Source: Candidatus Omnitrophota bacterium (GTDB lineage Bacteria > Omnitrophota > Gorgyraeia > Gygaellales > Profunditerraquicolaceae). From it: a stretch of DNA of 64,000 nucleotides. The translations under genes and the position numbers were made by a program. A model generated the notes under the pieces. The model searched no databases. It saw only the letters and a program-made list of their open reading frames with translations, and was not told where the DNA came from. The DNA is taken from contig JBASUY010000030.1 of the NCBI GenBank assembly GCA_049275655.1, positions 78,446 to 142,445 of the forward strand, given 5' to 3'. Shown here one piece after another: positions 42,422 to 53,484 of this stretch (position 1 is the stretch's first letter; every line of letters begins with the position of its first letter).

Positions 42422-43034
42422 TGCTTCCTCCTTGAATTTTTTCTAATATTGATTTTACCTGTTTTTTTGTATTAGTGAATGAACCGCTATTATCTATAAT
42501 AAAGTCCGCTACGTGAGCTTTACGCCGTATCGGAATCTGCGTTTTTATACGTTTTACAACCTCTGTTTTTTTAAGGCGCCTTTTTTTTACCATCCTCCTG
42601 ATATGCTCATCCCTATCAATTATAACTACAATTAAACTATCAACTATATTTCTTAACCCTGCCTCCAGTAATAAAGGGGCATCTAATACAACGGCCCCTC
42701 TTTTAAACTTCTTTAGCTTAATCTTAATATCCCGGACTATATTAGGATGTACAATACTATTTAATCTTTTAAGCATCCTAGGGTTAGAAAATACTAAATC
42801 CCCTAACTTCTTACGGTTGATATAACGCTTAGGGCCTAAAATCCCTTTACCGAAAAAATTAACAATCTTTTTATATGCCTTAGCCTTAGGCAGAAGATAA
42901 CTGTGGGCTATTTTATCTGCGTCAATAATCTTTAAGCCAAAGGCTTTTAAGAAACGCGAAACAGTGCTCTTTCCACTTCCAAATACCCCTGTTACTCCGA
43001 TAACGATTCTTTTATCTTTTCTTTGCTTTTTCAT
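42402..43034 (-). CDS. coaE: dephospho-CoA kinase
   Basis: P-loop [13 protein letters not shown], 210 aa. Confidence 0.85.
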
Positions 43035-44400
43035 ATAATTTTATATACTCTTTAGCTGAGTTCTCCCAAGAAAAATCATACCTCATAGCAAAAGATATAA
43101 GCTTGTTAATTTTGCCTTTATCCGCAAATAGAGAAGCTGCTTTTTTTATTGCCTTTAAGAAGCTATCTTTATTATAGGAAGAAAAAACAAAGCCATTTTT
43201 ACTATTTACCGTGTCAACTAAACCCCCGGTTTTATAAACAACCGGGATCGCTCCATACCTTAAGGCGATCATCTGGCCTAAGCCGCATGGCTCATACTTA
43301 GAGGGCATTAAGAAGAAGTCCGAGCCTGCATAAATCTTATGCGCTAAAGCTTCATCAAAGCCTATATTAAAAGATAGATTATCAGGAAACCTCCCCGCAT
43401 ATCCTTTAAGTAGATTTTCATATTTAGCATCTCCTCTGCCTAAAATTACTAACTGAGAGCCTGTTTTGCATATATCCTCAATCGCCTCTAAAAGAATATC
43501 AAAACCCTTCTGCTCGGCGAGCCTGGAGACGATACCGAATAACGGGGCACCTTCTAAAATAGGCAAACCGCAATCCCTCTGAAGGGCAATTTTATTAAAC
43601 CGCTTATTTTCAGGCTTAAGCAAAGAGTAATTAAAAGCGATATGCTTATCTTTTTGAGGGTCCCAAATATCATAATCCAATCCATTTAAGATACCGTATA
43701 GATAACGGCTACGTTTAATTAATAACCCCTCAAGCCCAAACCCAAACTCAGGAGTAGTTATCTCTTTTGCATAATTAGGGCTTACGGTATTTATAATGTC
43801 AGAGAAGGCTATCCCCCCTTTTAAAAGATTAATATTGTCATAAAACTCAAAACCTTCTATATTAAATAATTCCCAACTAAGGTTAAGCTTCGGGAATTTC
43901 TCCTTTGGAAAGATACCCTGATAACCTATATTATGTATAGTCAAAAGCGTGCGCATATTGCTATAAAACTTATCCTTTGAGCAAATAGATTTAAGGTATG
44001 CCGGGATTAAAGAAGCCTGCCAATCATGCAGGTGGATAATATCACAAGAAAAGTTTACCTCTTTTAGCAAAGATAAAGCCTTGCGGCAATAAAAAGAAAA
44101 ACGCTCTAAATTATCCCCATAGTCCCCAAATTCATCTTGGTATAAGCCCTTACGGTTAAAGTATTGTTGGTTTTCTATAAAATATACTTTTATATCATCT
44201 TCGGTTAGGCAATAAGAAATATCGTCATTAAGCCTTTTAATCTTAAATTTTTTTGCCTCTATCTCTCGATACCCCGGCATTATTATAATAGCTTCATGCC
44301 CTTGCTTTTGAAGGGCAACGGGCAAAGATGCGGCTACATCTGCTAAACCTCCAGTCTTAGCAAACGGCACAACCTCGGAAGCGCAAATCGCTATCTTCAT
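43012..44400 (-). CDS. glgA: glycogen synthase (ADP-glucose type GT5)
   Basis: N-terminal KTGGLADV motif, 462 aa. Confidence 0.85.
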   Translation of the reverse strand: MKIAICASEVVPFAKTGGLADVAASLPVALQKQGHEAIIIMPGYREIEAKKFKIKRLNDDISYCLTEDDIKVYFIENQQYFNRKGLYQDEFGDYGDNLERFSFYCRKALSLLKEVNFSCDIIHLHDWQASLIPAYLKSICSKDKFYSNMRTLLTIHNIGYQGIFPKEKFPKLNLSWELFNIEGFEFYDNINLLKGGIAFSDIINTVSPNYAKEITTPEFGFGLEGLLIKRSRYLYGILNGLDYDIWDPQKDKHIAFNYSLLKPENKRFNKIALQRDCGLPILEGAPLFGIVSRLAEQKGFDILLEAIEDICKTGSQLVILGRGDAKYENLLKGYAGRFPDNLSFNIGFDEALAHKIYAGSDFFLMPSKYEPCGLGQMIALRYGAIPVVYKTGGLVDTVNSKNGFVFSSYNKDSFLKAIKKAASLFADKGKINKLISFAMRYDFSWENSAKEYIKLYEKAKKR

Positions 44401-46984: not shown

Positions 46985-47725
46985 CTATTCTGATAATGCC
47001 CTGTGCTGAACCTTTTCAATAAACTCCATTATATCTTTATTTTCAGGATCCAAATACTGGGCATCCAAAGCTTCCTTTACGGCTTTGGCATAATTGCTTT
47101 TTGCATAACTAGACTTAGCATTGTCAAAGTGCTTACGGGCAAGCGCTCTGTCATCATGCCTTAATATGTACTTTTCATTAGAAATGTCTTTTGCCAATTT
47201 CAAGATATCCTGCTCCTCAAAATCCTTTACCGGATTTTGAGAAAAACTTAAACGTATATCCTCAAAGCGCTTTTGGGCCTTCTTAGTCCAAGGGTCATTA
47301 AAATCCCCTAATTCCGAACGCTTCTTCCAACAATAAGCAGCCTTGCCAAATTCCCTTCTCTCCTCGTATAAAAGGGCTAAGTTAGTATAGGAACTTAAAT
47401 AGTACGGGTCTAATTTTAGGGCCTTAAGGTAGCTCTCTTCGGCCCTATCTATCATGCCTTTAGCCTCATAAACTACGCCTAAATCATTATAAGCTACTGC
47501 ATAAAAGGGATCTACCTCTATTGCCTTCTGATATATCTTCATTGCTACATCTAAATCGCCCGCATCTTGCGCCTTTAACCCTTCTTGGCGGTATTCACGC
47601 GCCTGAGCCTCCAAGGCAGTAAGCTCCTTTGGTTTTTCTAAGCCTGCTACTTCTTGCGCAAATACAGAATAGCTCCGGAAGAATAAAGATAAGCCTAAAA
47701 CTAAAATTAAGATTATATTTTTCAA
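46985..47725 (-). CDS. secreted TPR-repeat protein, TTG start
   Basis: Signal peptide MKNIILILVLGLSLFFRSYSVFAQE. Tandem TPR-like repeats (AYNDLGVVYEAKG, YTNLALLYEER). Confidence 0.6.
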   Translation of the reverse strand: MKNIILILVLGLSLFFRSYSVFAQEVAGLEKPKELTALEAQAREYRQEGLKAQDAGDLDVAMKIYQKAIEVDPFYAVAYNDLGVVYEAKGMIDRAEESYLKALKLDPYYLSSYTNLALLYEERREFGKAAYCWKKRSELGDFNDPWTKKAQKRFEDIRLSFSQNPVKDFEEQDILKLAKDISNEKYILRHDDRALARKHFDNAKSSYAKSNYAKAVKEALDAQYLDPENKDIMEFIEKVQHRALSE

Positions 47726-47764: not shown

Positions 47765-47792
47765 ATTATATAAAATAAAACTCGCTCGTCAA
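47765..47792 (-). promoter_or_regulatory. sigma70-like promoter (TTGACG-16-TATAAT) upstream of the TPR-polA-glgA transcription unit
   Basis: -35 at 47787-47792 and -10 at 47765-47770 in the minus-strand sense. Confidence 0.45.
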
Positions 47793-47816: not shown

Positions 47817-49970
47817 TTATAATAAAGGATTCATAAAAAGCGCTGGGTGCTTAGCCTTCCTGAGAAAATCTAATAGGGGATTAAGAGTAAGAGCGGTATC
47901 TTCGTCAGCAATCTTTTCTAATAGGTCAGGCTCACCGATATCATAGGCTATTTTTTTTAAGTCCTTTTCAAGCAATAGCTTTAGCTCCTTAGATACCCAT
48001 ACCAAGCGCCTTAAGCCTCCTTCTGCTAAGATAAATTTATCGCTCAATATATATCTTCTGGCTATGCCCATAAACCCTGGGTTAGAAGGAATATTTTTAG
48101 CTAAATCAGAGAGGGTAGAAAAATCCATTCCCAGAGGAGTCATTCCGGGATAATTCCTATCTACCGCAATCACCCCGTTTGCCTCCGGAAGAACAGCAAG
48201 GATGCATTCAAATAAACCTGAAGTTGACAAGGGAGCCTTCGTAATAGAATAAAGACTTGCTTCTTTGATAATACTATTGGTTTTATCCGCAACAAACCTA
48301 TTGATCCCTTCCCACTGCCCTAAAGAACTACTTAAAGCCTTTCCCTTAGGTATAGGGCTATTCCAACCATAAGAAACAACCTCAGAAGATACTTTAGCAT
48401 CTAACCAAGAGTAGGCTCCGCACATCCCCGGGCGCTCTGGAGATATGATACAAATATGATTAGGAGAGGCAGACTGGCAAATAAAACAAGAATAATAATT
48501 ATCCACCTCTTCATCTAAAAGCCCTTTTAAGCGCTCGTCCCTTTCGGAGAAAATCCTTCTTGCCATTTTAAGCTTATCCCGCACATCTCCATCCCGGGTA
48601 TAAAGCTTAACTTGGGCCTTATCTATGATACCTGGATACTCCCGGCGTAGCATAGAATATATAATTAAGCCTAAGTGCTTTAGCCTAAACCCGCTCAGGA
48701 AAGCTTGGCGGCTTATCCTAATTAAATTTAGGTCCCTCTGCCCCTCATGCGCCAAGCCAGAGGCGTAGTTAATAAATCTATGGAGCTGGCGCTCTAGGAC
48801 AGGCTCAAAATCTTTTTGCATTTTTTTACCACAAACTTCAACAACCAAAGCTAAAGAAAGAGAATCTTTTTTAGGTAAATCTTGGCTAATATCCGGGCCG
48901 AACAACTCGATAGACCCATCCTCAATATCGTCTTTATCTCTGTAAACCAAAAGCTCAAAAAACAATCCCCCTCTGCCTCCAAACTCAAAGGCAAGCTCTT
49001 CTTCTTTAACCTTCTCTCCTTCATATAAATCAGAATAAGGAACAGGGATATTTATAGGCAAACCGCTTACCTTTATCCCGCAAGATTGCACGCACAAAGC
49101 GGAGATCTTTTTATAATCCGACTGCGTTAGTATGCTGACCGTTGATCCGGGCGCTATGTTATACGGGCCTTCGGGAGTTAAATCGCTTATTATAGGCAAA
49201 TCAAATACTCCCCCCGCTAAAAGAACGCCTAAATCCAATTTTTCTCTCCTTCCCAAGGCGAGAATAAAAGAAGGTATGCGTTTGCGTAAATAACTTTTTA
49301 GATTATTGAATTCTCCGGGGGCTATATTACCGTAAAGCAATGGTATCCTTATCATAAAATTCAAAGCATATATTAAGGAGAGCGGCCCCCCCCTTAAAGG
49401 CAAAATACGCGTACCCATATCTACCCCTACGGTATTATCCTTATATAATAAAGATAGCGTATTAGCACTTAACCCATCAGTAATAAAGCACAAAATATTT
49501 TTAGAATAAAAATCCCTTAGGATATCTATAAATAAAGATGTATTATTCGGCGCTCCGGAAATAATAGCTACCCCGGATAAGCGGCCATCTATAAGCTTAA
49601 GGCCTAAATCGTGCAATTTGTTATCCGATATGAAGCCAGGATCTTCCAGGAAAGGGGTTTTGTTTAATGCCTTTAAAGAGGCTAACGCCTCTTGGCATAA
49701 AAAGAACAAAACTGCCTCACTTAGAGAATCTTGTAGAGAGGGAGAAAGGCTATGCCTGCTAATCTCATCTAAAGCCTTGCTTAAATCACCTAAGTTCTCA
49801 ACTTTGATTTCTAAAAAAAAGTAAATTAAAGGAAGGTAATAACTTGTGCCGGGGAAGCTTACCCTTTTATCCAAACCAAACTTATTTATTGCCCTGCTTA
49901 AAGTTTGGCGTGCTAAAACTAAAACCCTATCTAAGCCTATATCACAAGCTTGCGCCAACCCTGCCAGCAT
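47817..49970 (-). CDS. acetyl-CoA synthase/decarbonylase beta-subunit (AcsB/CdhC) homolog with an apparently degenerate Ni-binding site
   Basis: Collinear similarity to acetogen AcsB over the full 717 aa: N-terminal GTSYYLPLI; central KMQKDFEPVLERQLHRFINYASGLAHEGQRDLNLIRIS; A-cluster [4Fe-4S] ligands SCFICQSASPNHICIISPERPGMCGA (C-x2-C-x8-C-x9-C); C-terminal GMTPLGMDFSTL, GFMGI and HPALFMNPLL. Exactly 67 aa after the last cluster Cys, where the Ni-ligand Cys-Gly-Cys is expected, the sequence reads S-G-L (STSGLFEC). Confidence 0.7.
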   Translation of the reverse strand: MLAGLAQACDIGLDRVLVLARQTLSRAINKFGLDKRVSFPGTSYYLPLIYFFLEIKVENLGDLSKALDEISRHSLSPSLQDSLSEAVLFFLCQEALASLKALNKTPFLEDPGFISDNKLHDLGLKLIDGRLSGVAIISGAPNNTSLFIDILRDFYSKNILCFITDGLSANTLSLLYKDNTVGVDMGTRILPLRGGPLSLIYALNFMIRIPLLYGNIAPGEFNNLKSYLRKRIPSFILALGRREKLDLGVLLAGGVFDLPIISDLTPEGPYNIAPGSTVSILTQSDYKKISALCVQSCGIKVSGLPINIPVPYSDLYEGEKVKEEELAFEFGGRGGLFFELLVYRDKDDIEDGSIELFGPDISQDLPKKDSLSLALVVEVCGKKMQKDFEPVLERQLHRFINYASGLAHEGQRDLNLIRISRQAFLSGFRLKHLGLIIYSMLRREYPGIIDKAQVKLYTRDGDVRDKLKMARRIFSERDERLKGLLDEEVDNYYSCFICQSASPNHICIISPERPGMCGAYSWLDAKVSSEVVSYGWNSPIPKGKALSSSLGQWEGINRFVADKTNSIIKEASLYSITKAPLSTSGLFECILAVLPEANGVIAVDRNYPGMTPLGMDFSTLSDLAKNIPSNPGFMGIARRYILSDKFILAEGGLRRLVWVSKELKLLLEKDLKKIAYDIGEPDLLEKIADEDTALTLNPLLDFLRKAKHPALFMNPLL

Positions 49971-50835
49971 CTTTATTCTCTAACCTGTTAATTATATTAT
50001 CTATTAACATCATGCTTACCGAAAGGCTCTTTTTGCCTATAACACTGCCGCAGGCAAAAATATTGCTGTAATTAGTAGCCATATTTTTATCAACTACTAT
50101 AAAATCATCCTTAATCAACACCTCTGTATTCTTTAAAAAATCAATATTTGATTTATAATTATCCATAAATAAAACTGCACATACCCCTAAGGCCTTGCCA
50201 CTCTTAAGCTTTATTGCCTGCACCTCTCCTTCGCCAATAACCTCAATTAAAGAATCACAGATAACCTCTATCTTTTTAGGTAAGTCTGAATAAGCAAGCA
50301 TAAAAGGGCTTAAAATCTTAACCTCTACCCCGTACCTATCTATTATCGCCTCTGCAACTTTTAAGGCTAGGCTATTTAAACCAACTATGCATACCGGATG
50401 TGCTATAAAACGCTTAAGAAACTCTTTAGTATCATCTAAGGTATATAAACGATAAGCACCTACTTTTCTAGCCCCGGGTATATCCGGAACAACCGGGCTT
50501 CTGCCGGAAGCGATAACTAAAATGTCATAATTAATGCTTCCCTTATCCTTAAAATATACTAAAAACTTTTCCGTATTTATACCGGATACTTTTTTATTCT
50601 TTAAAAAATTAATTCCTGCTTTCTGATAAAAATCCTCGTCGCATAAAAATATATCTTTTTCTTTTACTACTCCGCTTATAAAATCTGGTATCTTTAAATG
50701 GTCGTAGGAAAGGTAACCTTCTTGGCTAAGCAAGGTTATATTACAATCCCTATGCTTAGCCTTTAACCCTAAGGCGATATTATGCCCTGATACTGAAGCT
50801 CCTATAATAACTACATTACCCATCATAATCCGCAA
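49942..50835 (-). CDS. truncated FAD-dependent pyridine nucleotide-disulfide oxidoreductase-family protein
   Basis: N-terminal FAD Rossmann motif VVIIGASVSGHNIA. The second dinucleotide-site region is degenerate (IVGLNSLALKV). Only 297 aa with no dimerisation domain. Overlaps metF and the acsB-like gene. Confidence 0.6.
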   Translation of the reverse strand: MRIMMGNVVIIGASVSGHNIALGLKAKHRDCNITLLSQEGYLSYDHLKIPDFISGVVKEKDIFLCDEDFYQKAGINFLKNKKVSGINTEKFLVYFKDKGSINYDILVIASGRSPVVPDIPGARKVGAYRLYTLDDTKEFLKRFIAHPVCIVGLNSLALKVAEAIIDRYGVEVKILSPFMLAYSDLPKKIEVICDSLIEVIGEGEVQAIKLKSGKALGVCAVLFMDNYKSNIDFLKNTEVLIKDDFIVVDKNMATNYSNIFACGSVIGKKSLSVSMMLIDNIINRLENKDAGRVGASL

Positions 50836-51692
50836 GCGTCTAAGATTTCAGGCAATAGCCTCCCTAAGCCAATAGGCATAATATGCACTCCGTCACACAT
50901 CGGCCTTAGCTTCTTTATAAGGCTTGAGGCTATCTCTATAGCCTTAGCTGTTTTATCCTTAGCCTCTTCCATCTCTTTTATTAAAACTTCAGGGACCACA
51001 ACTCCGGCTACATTTTCGTTCATATATCTGGCCATGGTTGCTGACTTTAAAATGACTATTCCTGCTAAAATCTTAGTATTAAGATGCCTTACCTTCTTTA
51101 AGAAATCTTCAAAGACCTTTAGGTCATAAACTGCCTGAGTCTGAAAGAACTCTGCCCCTGCGGATATCTTTTTTTCCATCTTTATAATCTCCGGCTCTAA
51201 AGGGTCTGCTCCCGGATTAACCACAGCGCCTAAATAAAAATCCGGATGTTTGCCGGTTAATCTATTGCCTTTTAAATCAGACCCGTTTTTAAGCATGCTT
51301 GCTGCCTGAAGTAGTTGTACTGAATCTAAATCAAACACAGGTTTAGCCTCCGGATGGTCTCCTGCTGTAGTATGGTCTCCGGTTAATATCAAAATATTTT
51401 CTATGCCTAAAGCTGCGGCGGACAAAAGGTCTGACTGCAATGCTAAACGATTACGGTCGCGACAGGTTAATTGATATATCGGCTCAAGCCCTTTTTCTCT
51501 TAAGATGCTCGAAACTACTAATGAACCTAACCGCAAGACAGAACTCTGCAGGTCAGTTACATTAAAGGCATCAACCCTGTTACGGATAATCTCAGCCTCC
51601 TCAATTACCTGCTTAGTATCTATACCTTTGGGCGGGCCAATCTCAGAAGTCACCATAAACTTTCCTGAACGTAATTTTTCCCTGAAACTCAT
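50823..51692 (-). CDS. metF: 5,10-methylenetetrahydrofolate reductase
   Basis: MTHFR TIM-barrel family (SFEIGPPKG-like N-terminus; ILTGD), 289 aa. Located between folD and the oxidoreductase. Confidence 0.85.
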   Translation of the reverse strand: MSFREKLRSGKFMVTSEIGPPKGIDTKQVIEEAEIIRNRVDAFNVTDLQSSVLRLGSLVVSSILREKGLEPIYQLTCRDRNRLALQSDLLSAAALGIENILILTGDHTTAGDHPEAKPVFDLDSVQLLQAASMLKNGSDLKGNRLTGKHPDFYLGAVVNPGADPLEPEIIKMEKKISAGAEFFQTQAVYDLKVFEDFLKKVRHLNTKILAGIVILKSATMARYMNENVAGVVVPEVLIKEMEEAKDKTAKAIEIASSLIKKLRPMCDGVHIMPIGLGRLLPEILDACGL

Positions 51693-52561
51693 TTATATCC
51701 CCCGCTTTCTTCTCTATAGCGCTCCTGAATAATAACTACCTCAACTAAATTACGCATAAGCATAGTAACGGTTAAAGGGCCAACACCTCCAGGAACCGGC
51801 GTAATAAAAGCGGCCCTTTTTTCTGCGCTATCAAATTCCACGTCTCCTACGATTTTATCTTTTATCCAGTTAATCCCCACATCTATTACTACAGAACCCT
51901 CTTTAACCCAATCCCCTTTAATTAAATTAGGGATACCTGCGGAAGAGACTAATACCTCTGCCCTGCTAATATGCTCTTTAAGCCTTCCAGATTCGCTTGT
52001 AGCTATATGGCATACTGTAACAGTAGCCATCTTTTGTAACAATAAAAGTGCTAAAGGCCTGCCTATTATCCGGCTATGCCCAACAATAACTATCTCTTTA
52101 CCGTATAAGTCTATATTGCTTTCTGCAATTAATTCCATAACCGCAGCAGGCGTACATGGGAGAATCCCCTCTTCCCCGAGCATGATTTTGCCTAAATTAC
52201 CAGGATGCATACCCTCAACATCCTTAGCCAAATCAATAGAAGCTACTGCCTTTTTATAATTAACATGCTCAGGTAACGGGCTTTGCAAGATAATTCCGTT
52301 TATAGAATTATCTAAATTTAATTCGCCTATAAAATCCAAGAGGCCGTTCTGAGTAGTAGAAAGAGGCAAATTATAAGGTTGGTAACCAATCCCTAACTCC
52401 CGGGCAAGTTTGGCCTGCGCATTAACGTAGCTTTGCGAGCTTAAGCTTTCTCCGATAATAATGCTTGCTAAAAGAGGCTTTACTTTTAAGGAGGATATAC
52501 GCCTTCTTAAAGTGTCTTTTATCTTATCGGCAATAACCCTACCTTCTAATAACCTTGCCAA
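51689..52561 (-). CDS. folD: bifunctional methylene-THF dehydrogenase / methenyl-THF cyclohydrolase
   Basis: FolD motifs (LASIIIGE, VVIVGHSRIIGRPLA, PVPGGVGPLT), 290 aa. Confidence 0.9.
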   Translation of the reverse strand: MARLLEGRVIADKIKDTLRRRISSLKVKPLLASIIIGESLSSQSYVNAQAKLARELGIGYQPYNLPLSTTQNGLLDFIGELNLDNSINGIILQSPLPEHVNYKKAVASIDLAKDVEGMHPGNLGKIMLGEEGILPCTPAAVMELIAESNIDLYGKEIVIVGHSRIIGRPLALLLLQKMATVTVCHIATSESGRLKEHISRAEVLVSSAGIPNLIKGDWVKEGSVVIDVGINWIKDKIVGDVEFDSAEKRAAFITPVPGGVGPLTVTMLMRNLVEVVIIQERYREESGGYK

Positions 52562-53099
52562 AGCTCTCCTCCATTTTAATTCTTATCTTCTTAAGAGCCG
52601 TAGACTTCTTATTAACCTCAGCAGTAATAGCGCGGGAAAATGCCTTGTCATCTAAGCCCTTTAAATTAATCTTAATATTAAAACAAGAAGAAGCAAATCC
52701 TGCTTCAAAAAGAACTGCCGCAATAACAACATCGCTTATCAATTTAGGGTTGCCTTTTCTTATAAGCAAGGGGCATATCTTTATTCCCTCAAAACAGAGC
52801 CTAGCAACCATAAAAGGCACATTTACCGCATCCCTTATATTTTTAGATTTATAGGCAATCGCATCTAAATCAACTAAACGTATAAATTCTTTTCTAAGCC
52901 GCTCACTTTGGCTTAAAGCCTCTTTTAACTTATCCTCATGCTTTAAAAACTTAGGGTTGCCTAAGGTAAAGTTTATCGCCATACTCATCAAGGCTGCAGC
53001 CATAGCAGCGCATAACGCGGCGGCAGAACCTCCTCCCGGGACAGGGAGCCTAGAAGAAAGTTCTTTAATATAATCCTCAAGGGTTTTATCTTTATACAT
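52539..53099 (-). CDS. fchA: methenyl-THF cyclohydrolase / formiminotransferase-cyclodeaminase C-domain family (FchA-like). Start taken at the internal Met (MYKDKTLEDY); the longest ORF extends to 53138
   Basis: FTCD_C signature LPVPGGGSAAALCAAMAAAL. The longer ORF would overlap yraN by 35 nt, so the Met at 53097-53099 is preferred. Confidence 0.7.
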   Translation of the reverse strand: MYKDKTLEDYIKELSSRLPVPGGGSAAALCAAMAAALMSMAINFTLGNPKFLKHEDKLKEALSQSERLRKEFIRLVDLDAIAYKSKNIRDAVNVPFMVARLCFEGIKICPLLIRKGNPKLISDVVIAAVLFEAGFASSCFNIKINLKGLDDKAFSRAITAEVNKKSTALKKIRIKMEESFGKVIRR

Positions 53100-53103
53100 A
53101 TTT

Positions 53104-53484
53104 TTAGTAACTAAAACCGCCACTGACTTCAAAGGCATCTTTAATTAAACTTAACTTAAAAGGAGAAGAAGAAAAATCTACAGAAACTACATCAAACCTT
53201 GCCCTTTTATTTAACAGAGAATTTTCTTTAAGAAAATTTAAAGCTACCTTAGATATCCTCCTCTGTTTTAAAGAAGAGACGGCTTCTTTTGCTAAGCCAA
53301 ACCTACTGCTCCTACGGGATTTTACTTCTATAAAACATAAGGTATCTTTATCTAAAGCTACTATATCTATCTCCCCAAACTTAACTTTATACCTTCGCGC
53401 TATTATTTTATACCCCTTGCCCTTAATAAATCTTACTGCTAAGTCCTCGCCGCTTTTGCCAAGGCTTAATTCTTTTTTAGCCAT
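53104..53484 (-). CDS. yraN: YraN/UPF0102 family endonuclease
   Basis: GE(x)DIVA...EVK motif typical of UPF0102, 126 aa. Conserved pairing with rnhB. Confidence 0.8.
   Translation of the reverse strand: MAKKELSLGKSGEDLAVRFIKGKGYKIIARRYKVKFGEIDIVALDKDTLCFIEVKSRRSSRFGLAKEAVSSLKQRRISKVALNFLKENSLLNKRARFDVVSVDFSSSPFKLSLIKDAFEVSGGFSY

Follow-up and report, generated by a model that had tools for sequence, protein, structure and literature searches.

A nickel-less acetyl-CoA synthase homologue and a shortened flavoprotein as a probable retained remnant of the Wood-Ljungdahl carbonyl branch in an Omnitrophota genome

A 64,000-nucleotide stretch of DNA from a Candidatus Omnitrophota bacterium (contig JBASUY010000030.1, positions 78,446 to 142,445; the whole stretch is hereafter the window) carries five overlapping minus-strand genes at 47817-53138 in a listing of its open reading frames (ORFs): fchA, folD, metF, a flavoprotein gene and a homologue of acsB, the gene for acetyl-CoA synthase (ACS). 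We term the last two products FAD' and AcsB'. In our judgement this pair is likely to be a catalytically dead but selectively retained iron-sulfur (Fe-S) and flavin remnant of the carbonyl branch of the Wood-Ljungdahl (WL) pathway, left beside housekeeping folate genes. The five gene identities come from Pfam and NCBIfam profile matches. The coordinates given by the initial annotation of this DNA, and its overlaps of 23, 4, 13 and 29 nt for the longest ORFs, agree with the ORF listing.

AcsB' has the three-domain architecture of ACS (Pfam PF18537, PF03598 and PF19436, corresponding to A1, which binds carbon monoxide dehydrogenase (CODH), A2 and A3), and a search of PDB sequences matches it to the Carboxydothermus hydrogenoformans enzyme with E about 1e-155. 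When the two are aligned, the spacing of the cubane cysteines, C495-x2-C498-x8-C507-x9-C517, is unbroken, and these four residues are invariant in all relatives compared. The Cys-Gly-Cys of the C. hydrogenoformans enzyme aligns to S584-G585-L586. This motif, Cys595/Gly596/Cys597 in Moorella numbering, binds the proximal and distal nickel. The gating Phe (CQSF motif; Phe515 in C. hydrogenoformans) is replaced by Ala501 in AcsB' and by Val in the sister genome, termed L001; the top PDB match, 8CJC, is an engineered F515A variant with Ala in the same column. The initial annotation had called the protein nickel-less with its [4Fe-4S] cysteines present, and both halves of that description stand. 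With these residues, AcsB' cannot assemble a canonical A-cluster. It scores 709 bits against the NCBIfam AcsB equivalog NF040764, below the cut-off of 800, and an identical protein in a Candidatus Omnitrophota metagenome-assembled genome is named 'hypothetical protein' at NCBI. A sequencing or assembly artefact at Ser-Gly-Leu was ruled out: four independent assemblies agree on this DNA at every base, and Ser-Gly-Leu is found in the sister genome too.

The losses extend beyond the nickel ligands. We compared 91 AcsBs chosen for having Cys-Gly-Cys, a motif accordingly 100% conserved in that set, with 12 lacking it. At least 95% conservation among the 91 is reached at 132 positions, 92 of which (70%) are retained in the nickel-less set and 16 lost; the lost ones include the nickel ligands, I497 and S502 next to the cubane motif, the G625-G626 loop and W416. 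AcsB' itself has K625-N626 for the Gly-Gly loop and L416 for the conserved Trp. The fold is kept along with the cubane cysteines: an AlphaFold2 (AF2) model has a mean pLDDT of 82.5 (about 73 for the N-terminal A1, 85-97 for A2/A3), with TM-scores of 0.81 to 6ytt_D, 0.90 to the truncated ACS 3git and 0.96 to the A3 domain 3s2x. AcsB' thus shares architecture, fold and four cubane cysteines with the bacterial AcsBs of Moorella thermoacetica, C. hydrogenoformans and Clostridium autoethanogenum (PDB 1OAO, 1RU3, 8CJC, 6YTT), but differs from them in its Ser-Gly-Leu, its Ala for the gating Phe, the loss of the Gly-rich loop and Trp, and the lack of CODH, corrinoid protein or methyltransferase genes nearby.

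One reading offered by the initial annotation was an incomplete WL pathway like that of Dehalococcoides, with AcsB running without CODH and either cleaving acetyl-CoA to supply methyl-tetrahydrofolate (methyl-THF) or using external CO. Dehalococcoides mccartyi, with an AcsB homologue, no CODH and a small genome, is a precedent resembling the window (Zhuang et al. 2014, as cited in PMC9324843). For about 24 Omnitrophota species, moreover, partial WL pathways without AcsA/CooS have been published, with dependence on CO as the interpretation; in that survey genes were scored by annotation, and the CODH-less cases were taken to be CO-using AcsB-E systems (PMC10066038). For relatives with Cys-Gly-Cys and a slowly evolving AcsB, interpreted there as AcsB-E systems, a Dehalococcoides-type or CO-dependent pathway is plausible and may well be the right description. 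For the window we hold it to be extremely improbable. It needs a working A-cluster, and AcsB' lacks both nickel-ligand cysteines and the gating Phe; its rate of evolution is about double that of intact AcsBs. The window has no corrinoid protein, methyltransferase or RACo gene. From the partial pathways of PMC10066038 it differs in a catalytically disabled AcsB and in a locus without fhs and acsC-E. Dehalococcoides, as described in PMC9324843, has ACS with a corrinoid protein and no MetF; measured against that description, the window lacks the A-cluster ligands, AcsC and AcsD, and has MetF. With metF present, an alternative route to methyl-THF is not needed.

Nickel-less AcsBs are not confined to the window. 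In a representative library of 50%-identity clusters, 102 AcsB-family clusters cover the key positions (among hits P0109-P0255), and 49 of these have all four cubane cysteines yet no exact Cys-Gly-Cys, about 35 of them lacking at least one nickel cysteine; clustering at 50% over-represents fast-evolving lineages. Motifs found in this library include SGL (P0138), CGF, CGR, SSL and CYR, and many are Cys-Ser-Cys; across the lineages compared, the former nickel site reads SGL, SSL, CGF, SGY, CGL, CDF or CGY. Judged by these motifs, nickel-less AcsB homologues seem common, and may be so well beyond Omnitrophota. Such recurrence suggests a possibly functional class, and with the strong conservation of A2/A3 despite loss of the nickel site it could favour a neofunctionalised enzyme, in which the AcsB' cubane and perhaps a new metal site serve another reaction or the sensing of CoA, acetyl-CoA or CO. 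We give this very little credence, since the substitutions vary by lineage, as in relaxation rather than in the making of a new motif, no new conserved ligand set appears, and W416 and the Gly-rich loop have gone as well. Two further AcsB homologues, P0104 (912 aa) and P0107 (649 aa), carry intein or homing-endonuclease domains (PF14890 in both; also PF14528 and PF07591 in P0104), and the P0104 insertion begins exactly at the Cys-Gly-Cys position ('...ETSC|CVADTNLF...').

The origin of the arrangement is visible in the gene orders of related genomes (Table 1). Once fhs, cooC/cooS/cooF and acsC-E are left out, the complete Omnitrophota operon has exactly the order of the five window genes. Wherever the upstream flank was captured, the cluster occupies a constant slot, downstream of trmD-rplS(-rnhB-yraN). 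Where fhs is kept it lies between yraN and fchA (L010, L013, L014, L020 and others), a place from which it is missing in the window. The window shares gene order, chromosomal slot and phylum with the published Omnitrophota WL operons (Seymour et al. 2023, PMC10066038). Since complete operons share this order and slot, the adjacency of metF, flavoprotein and AcsB appears to be inherited, the product of deletion from an ancestral order. A WL origin of the fchA-folD-metF order, as first proposed, is borne out, and the grouping of metF with a flavoprotein and AcsB is conserved in relatives, which settles the earlier doubt that it might be a one-off rearrangement. Recruitment of the AcsB/FAD pair as a new acquisition beside metF, the other reading of the initial annotation, is contradicted by the collinear complete operons in the same slot and by fusions of the flavoprotein to AcsB and not to MetF.

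Table 1. Gene orders at the cluster in Omnitrophota relatives
Stage	Gene order	Loci
Complete operon	Fhs-FchA-FolD-MetF-(CooC)-CooS-CooF-FNOR-AcsB-AcsC-RACo-CooC-AcsD-AcsE	L127, L128
No CODH module	Fhs-FchA-FolD-MetF-AcsB-AcsC-RACo-CooC-AcsD-AcsE	L037, L038, L043, L130
No acsC-E at locus	...MetF-CooS-CooF-FNOR-AcsB-TPR-PolA	L014, L032, L035, L036, L039
Short flavoprotein	...MetF-FAD'-AcsB-TPR-PolA	window, L001, L008, L012, L016, L024, L026-28
Fusion	...MetF-[flavoprotein subdomain fused to AcsB]	L009, L013, L017, L019, L021-23, L025

For the AcsB-TPR-PolA loci no orphan acsC-D-E clusters were found, all AcsC loci (including L127, L128 and L130) adjoining AcsB, and none being traceable to a genome of the window's type, in what is a small sample. 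Of 593 confirmed hits in a species-representative collection, the best 80 include a single AcsB locus from the sister genome and none from the genome of the window itself. In the complete operons (L127 1-15611, L128 1-15699) the 13-14 WL genes form one string, and behind it come panB, apbA and a second gene of the pterin-binding type. A metagenomic locus (L104 1347-6217) shows a further stage of reduction: YraN-FchA-FolD-MetF-FAD' is followed by a 432-aa AcsB' with no A1 domain and with Ser-Ser-Leu.

FAD' descends from the CooF-associated FAD/NAD oxidoreductase (FNOR). CooS-CooF-FNOR is a recognised CODH gene context (PMC6344411), found for example in Geobacter sulfurreducens and Clostridium spp. 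(PMC4703632, PMC6344411). Full-length FNOR stands between CooF and AcsB in relatives, and CooF-FNOR lies directly upstream of AcsB in other phyla too (L049, L060). Compared with these modules, FAD' has 293 aa rather than about 420, no NAD motif, no Rubredoxin_C-type C-terminal domain, Gly-Ser for Gly-Asp in the second flavin motif, and no CooS or CooF partner. What is left of the ferredoxin-reductase fold is its FAD domain and its ex-NAD domain. The N-terminal GxSxxG-type FAD motif is present as G8-A-S-V-S-G13-H, so that FAD' probably binds FAD. At the NAD(P) site the GxGxxG of Pfam Pyr_redox (PF00070) is replaced by G-L-N-S-L-A with a deletion of about 15 aa; PF00070 is found in all full-length FNORs and in just three short-form proteins.

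The gene had been described as an FAD-oxidoreductase fragment, a term that does not fit. A search of 5.8 billion proteins placed FAD' in a discrete family of short forms, with about 105 clusters, lengths of 265-313 aa and 36-100% identity to FAD', separated by a gap from the full-length FNORs (402-437 aa, about 27% identity); those clusters with a source name are almost all from Omnitrophota. The family conserves GxSxxGH, A-S-G-R and its own F-A-C-G-S, with 'pVC..Gs' in place of GxGxxG. The AF2 model is confident (pLDDT 94, pTM 0.89). Its structural matches are ferredoxin-NAD reductases and CoA-disulfide reductases, with TM-scores of about 0.85 when scaled to the query and 0.45-0.64 when scaled to the longer targets; the best are TodA (3EF6/4EMI), putidaredoxin reductase (1Q1R), the CoA-disulfide reductase CoADR (3CGB) and AorC (8C0Z_E), at 18-22% identity. 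Those reductases have 400-560 aa with a C-terminal domain, which FAD' lacks along with the redox-active Cys of CoADR/Npx and the NAD site.

Fusions tie the flavoprotein to AcsB. Whole FAD'-AcsB fusions occur in P0111 (1024 aa) and in an ORF of L020 (1035 aa). In AcsBs of 838-865 aa (P0006, P0012, P0014, P0020, P0110) the N-terminal extension corresponds to FAD' residues ~110-228, the ex-NAD subdomain without the flavin domain. Because flavoprotein and AcsB are fused in relatives, we take FAD' to be a partner of AcsB, and predict physical contact between the two. The subdomain fusions we read as evidence that in several lineages this contact may matter more than redox chemistry.

The same proteins could instead serve MetF, with FAD' and the [4Fe-4S] AcsB' acting as electron-input subunits in a novel complex that replaces MetV, RnfC2 or Hdr-MvhD. 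Acetogen complexes of methylenetetrahydrofolate reductase (MTHFR) of types II-IV (MetFV, MetFV-RnfC2, MetFV-HdrABC-MvhD; PMC8760232) likewise have the order fchA-folD-metF with Fe-S and flavin genes beside metF. The idea gains from translational coupling of metF, FAD' and acsB' (overlaps of 1-4 and 29 nt), from the conservation of this trio in at least 10 lineages, and from the cofactors that its members should carry, a cubane in AcsB' and a flavin at the N-terminal motif of FAD'. It gains too from the lack of a MetV-like gene beside metF in any Omnitrophota locus seen, the metF-AcsB gaps leaving no room for one; in the window, Pfam scans of 57 ORFs found no MetV, RnfC2 or HdrABC-MvhD, next to metF or elsewhere. 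MetF is far from NAD(P)H-type MTHFRs (solved structures match at E about 1e-7), and acetogen MetFs without an NADH site depend on Fe-S partners (PMC8760232). In contrast to types II-IV, however, the neighbours of metF here derive from FNOR and AcsB of the carbonyl branch, and any link to MetF is hypothetical. The adjacency comes from ancestral operon order, not from fresh assembly. The same MetF (62-69% identical) occurs with no flavoprotein beside it in relatives with Fhs-FchA-FolD-MetF-AcsB-AcsC, the flavoprotein is fused to AcsB and never to MetF, and in at least six species only its flavin-less middle subdomain survives. The NAD(P) site of FAD' being gone, there is no obvious electron source for MetF, and the rate of MetF evolution shows no change tracking the state of its neighbours. 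We therefore regard such a complex as unlikely, though it stands above the other alternatives weighed here.

Window MetF is 93% identical to that of the sister genome (dN/dS 0.10, the ratio of nonsynonymous to synonymous divergence). FchA, FolD and MetF would perform ordinary biosynthetic interconversion of folate one-carbon (C1) units. The order of the three genes is that of acetogen clusters, and with no fhs in the window formate activation is not encoded at the locus.

FAD' and AcsB' are both under purifying selection. The synonymous divergence (dS) is saturated for all pairs but the closest, and the pair used for the window is the sister genome L001, also Ser-Gly-Leu. Between these two, 19 flanking genes are 81-99.5% identical (dS 0.19-0.52, dN/dS 0.01-0.25), and AcsB' is 64% identical, its first 400 codons giving a dN/dS of 0.23 and the remaining 317 (401-717) one of 0.15. 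As both genomes have Ser-Gly-Leu, selection acted after loss of the nickel site. A second pair, L007 (Ser-Ser-Leu) and L008 (Cys-Gly-Phe), gives 0.17-0.21 for AcsB and 0.08 for PolA. The ORFs are intact in every nickel-less relative seen.

Constraint has nonetheless weakened. Relative to PolA, divergence of the A2/A3 domains is 0.93-1.13x in nickel-less AcsBs and 0.5-0.7x in all Cys-Gly-Cys lineages, whether CODH is present or not; the rate in nickel-less AcsB is about double that of its intact relatives, with constraint roughly halved but still present. Together with the losses in the active site, of A1 in L104 and of the flavin domain in fused forms, this acceleration points in the direction of plain decay, with FAD' and AcsB' functionless and on the way to deletion, and Omnitrophota are known for reduced genomes (PMC10066038). 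Decay is nevertheless a poor fit to the dN/dS values of both pairs, to a 717-aa ORF intact across a clade whose PolA identity is only about 72%, to the bulk of near-invariant AcsB positions that are kept, and to a short flavoprotein family with conserved motifs of its own. We think it very unlikely, if a little less so than a working or a repurposed enzyme.

The nickel site has degenerated at least twice, and probably more often, as judged from neighbour-joining trees. The PolA tree unites the window, L001, L007 and L008 in a single clade, implying one ancestral loss of the second Cys, while L047 (Cys-Asp-Phe) lies beside a Cys-Gly-Cys genome and L009 (Cys-Gly-Leu) and L010 (Cys-Ser-Cys) lie elsewhere. 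The AcsB neighbour-joining tree groups all degenerate sequences together; long-branch attraction is a possible cause, suspected because PolA and housekeeping trees set L047, L009 and L010 apart from the window clade. The partner-binding domain has its own history. Distances in A1 are 12-26% among CODH-linked AcsBs, 15-36% among CODH-less Cys-Gly-Cys forms and 55-76% between the CODH-linked and CODH-less sets. Over AcsB residues 1-300, CODH-linked forms (L014, L035, L036, L039) are 74-88% identical among themselves and 24-45% identical to CODH-less ones (L012, L016), with 75-80% identity across the same divide in A2/A3. These figures suggest that A1 was remodelled on partner change or CODH loss.

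A hyper-divergent segment spans the end of FAD' and the start of AcsB' (Table 2). Here the window and its sister show 57-60% nucleotide identity without indels, against 90-95% in 20 kb of flanks, and where residues are conserved, their fourfold sites show a divergence of 0.63-0.65, compared with 0.14-0.33 for the genes on either side. The segment looks like an allele imported by recombination, or else a very old one, under selection (dN/dS ~0.23). Neutral drift as the source of the divergent 5′ part of acsB' was rejected on the fourfold excess, on third positions exceeding first and second, and on the lack of indels. Smaller dips to 77-81% identity occur at ~52620-52780 (fchA/folD junction) and ~42900-43200 (glgA/coaE junction), suggesting that the two lineages stand in a generally mosaic, recombining relationship.

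Table 2. Features of the window (coordinates in the 64,000-nt stretch)
Feature	Coordinates	Strand	Remarks
fchA	52539..53138	-	199 aa; methenyl-THF cyclohydrolase, FTCD_C; start overlaps yraN by 35 nt
folD	51689..52561	-	290 aa; bifunctional methylene-THF dehydrogenase/cyclohydrolase (Pfam THF_DHG_CYH)
metF	50823..51692	-	289 aa; Pfam MTHFR
FAD'	49942..50835	-	short-form FNOR-derived flavoprotein, Pyr_redox_2; longest ORF 297 aa; likely product 293 aa, start 50823
AcsB'	47817..49970	-	nickel-less acetyl-CoA synthase homologue, 717 aa; Pfam CODH_A_N+CdhC+ACS_CODH_B_C
FAD' N-terminal dinucleotide motif G-A-S-V-S-G-H (GxSxxGH)	50782..50802	-	G, S and H each conserved to 90% or more across short family
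FAD' degenerate NAD(P) site V-C-I-V-G-L-N-S-L-A	50365..50394	-	GxGxxG in full-length FNORs
FAD' F-A-C-G-S-V	50041..50058	-	replaces Y-A-A-G-D-C flavin motif of full-length FNORs; conserved family-wide
AcsB' cubane motif C495-F-I-C498-Q-S-A501-...-C507-...-C517	48420..48488	-	all four [4Fe-4S] Cys present
AcsB' S584-G585-L586	48213..48221	-	stands where nickel-binding Cys-Gly-Cys is
Hyper-divergent segment	48720..50220	-	last ~40 codons of FAD' and first ~420 codons of AcsB'
yraN (UPF0102)	53104..53484	-	conserved neighbour upstream of fchA
TPR protein	46985..47725	-	conserved downstream neighbour; AcsB-TPR-PolA in all relatives without acsC-E here
Promoter-like TTGACG-16-TATAAT	47765..47792	-	91-nt gap between AcsB' and TPR gene

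Gene calls in relatives start FAD' at the ATG that gives 293 aa, which reduces the metF/FAD' overlap to 1-4 nt (TTATGATGG). All credible genes of the window (1-64000) lie on the minus strand; GC skew is negative in each 2-kb bin, and the co-directional stretch is unusually long. Apart from the cluster, the window genes are housekeeping ones by Pfam: biosynthesis of lysine, arginine, leucine, fatty acids and tryptophan, translation, and replication. Searches with tblastn, using queries from related loci, found no match elsewhere in the window to Fhs, CooS, CooF, CooC, AcsC, AcsD, AcsE or RACo, and Pfam scans of the other window ORFs gave no further WL gene; in all, 57 ORFs were scanned, almost the full set of those on the minus strand with 110 aa or more. 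The initial annotation had reported no fhs, acsA, acsCD or acsE over at least 15 kb on either side; this holds over the 47.8 kb on one side, while on the other, beyond fchA at higher coordinates, the window extends for 10.9 kb.

Operon limits were taken from the gene overlaps, because promoter and terminator scans gave site counts not above those in shuffled sequence, the one exception being a strong match that follows acsB'. This promoter-like site agrees with the sigma-70 consensus at 11 of 12 positions, and no other strong signal occurs over 8.5 kb; its probable role is to drive the TPR gene downstream, and it probably lies where the unit ends on its 3′ side. Transcription probably begins further upstream than fchA, since yraN and fchA overlap by 35 nt and all window genes are co-directional.

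The history that we favour, of a dead but retained carbonyl-branch remnant, would start from the complete Omnitrophota WL operon of Table 1. From this locus fhs, cooS/cooF and acsC-E would have been dropped in the present lineage, with FchA, FolD and MetF staying for folate C1 interconversion. FNOR would have shrunk to the 293-aa short form with no recognisable NAD(P) site and no C-terminal domain, and AcsB would have lost both nickel-ligand cysteines, the gating Phe and other active-site residues. Together, FAD' and AcsB' may form a pseudo-enzyme Fe-S/flavin heterodimer, inactive in both synthesis and cleavage of acetyl-CoA and kept for a nickel-independent role, either structural or regulatory, or as a small electron relay.

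Several points weigh against this account. Nothing positive points to one residual function of FAD' and AcsB'. The direction of change, loss and not gain, is deduced from crude neighbour-joining trees and the wide spread of full-length CooF-FNOR-AcsB clusters, and FAD binding by the short form is predicted from motif conservation. AcsB' might hold a non-canonical metal site, for example at Cys498 with the conserved Cys589, and a separate canonical acs cluster could lie outside the 64-kb window. A broader proposal, that nickel-less AcsBs are a widespread, unrecognised Fe-S class which in Omnitrophota joins the short flavoprotein as an electron-transfer or regulatory module of C1/folate metabolism, for instance as the input partner of a MetV-less MetF, is offered tentatively, and we consider it doubtful.

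In the open-access literature we found no published description of a nickel-less AcsB, of the short FNOR-derived family, of its fusion to AcsB, or of the graded syntenic series. Nor did we find a prior examination of the predicted FNOR-AcsB contact, even for the intact enzymes of phyla with FNOR upstream of AcsB. If the retained pair does work for MetF, that would inform the question of what donates electrons physiologically to MetV-type and MetV-less MTHFRs. Published accounts present Omnitrophota as acetogens whose WL pathways are full or partial, and AcsB annotation matches are counted as evidence for a carbonyl branch. The present locus indicates that some of these AcsBs are catalytically dead, and pathway calls therefore need a check for Cys-Gly-Cys; a WL call made from annotation alone would mislead for this Omnitrophota genome. 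One syntenic slot holds graded stages, from complete through CODH-less, truncated or fused flavoprotein and nickel-less to A1-less, and the series is a natural experiment in the dismantling of a multi-subunit metalloenzyme in reduced genomes and in which of its parts stay under selection.

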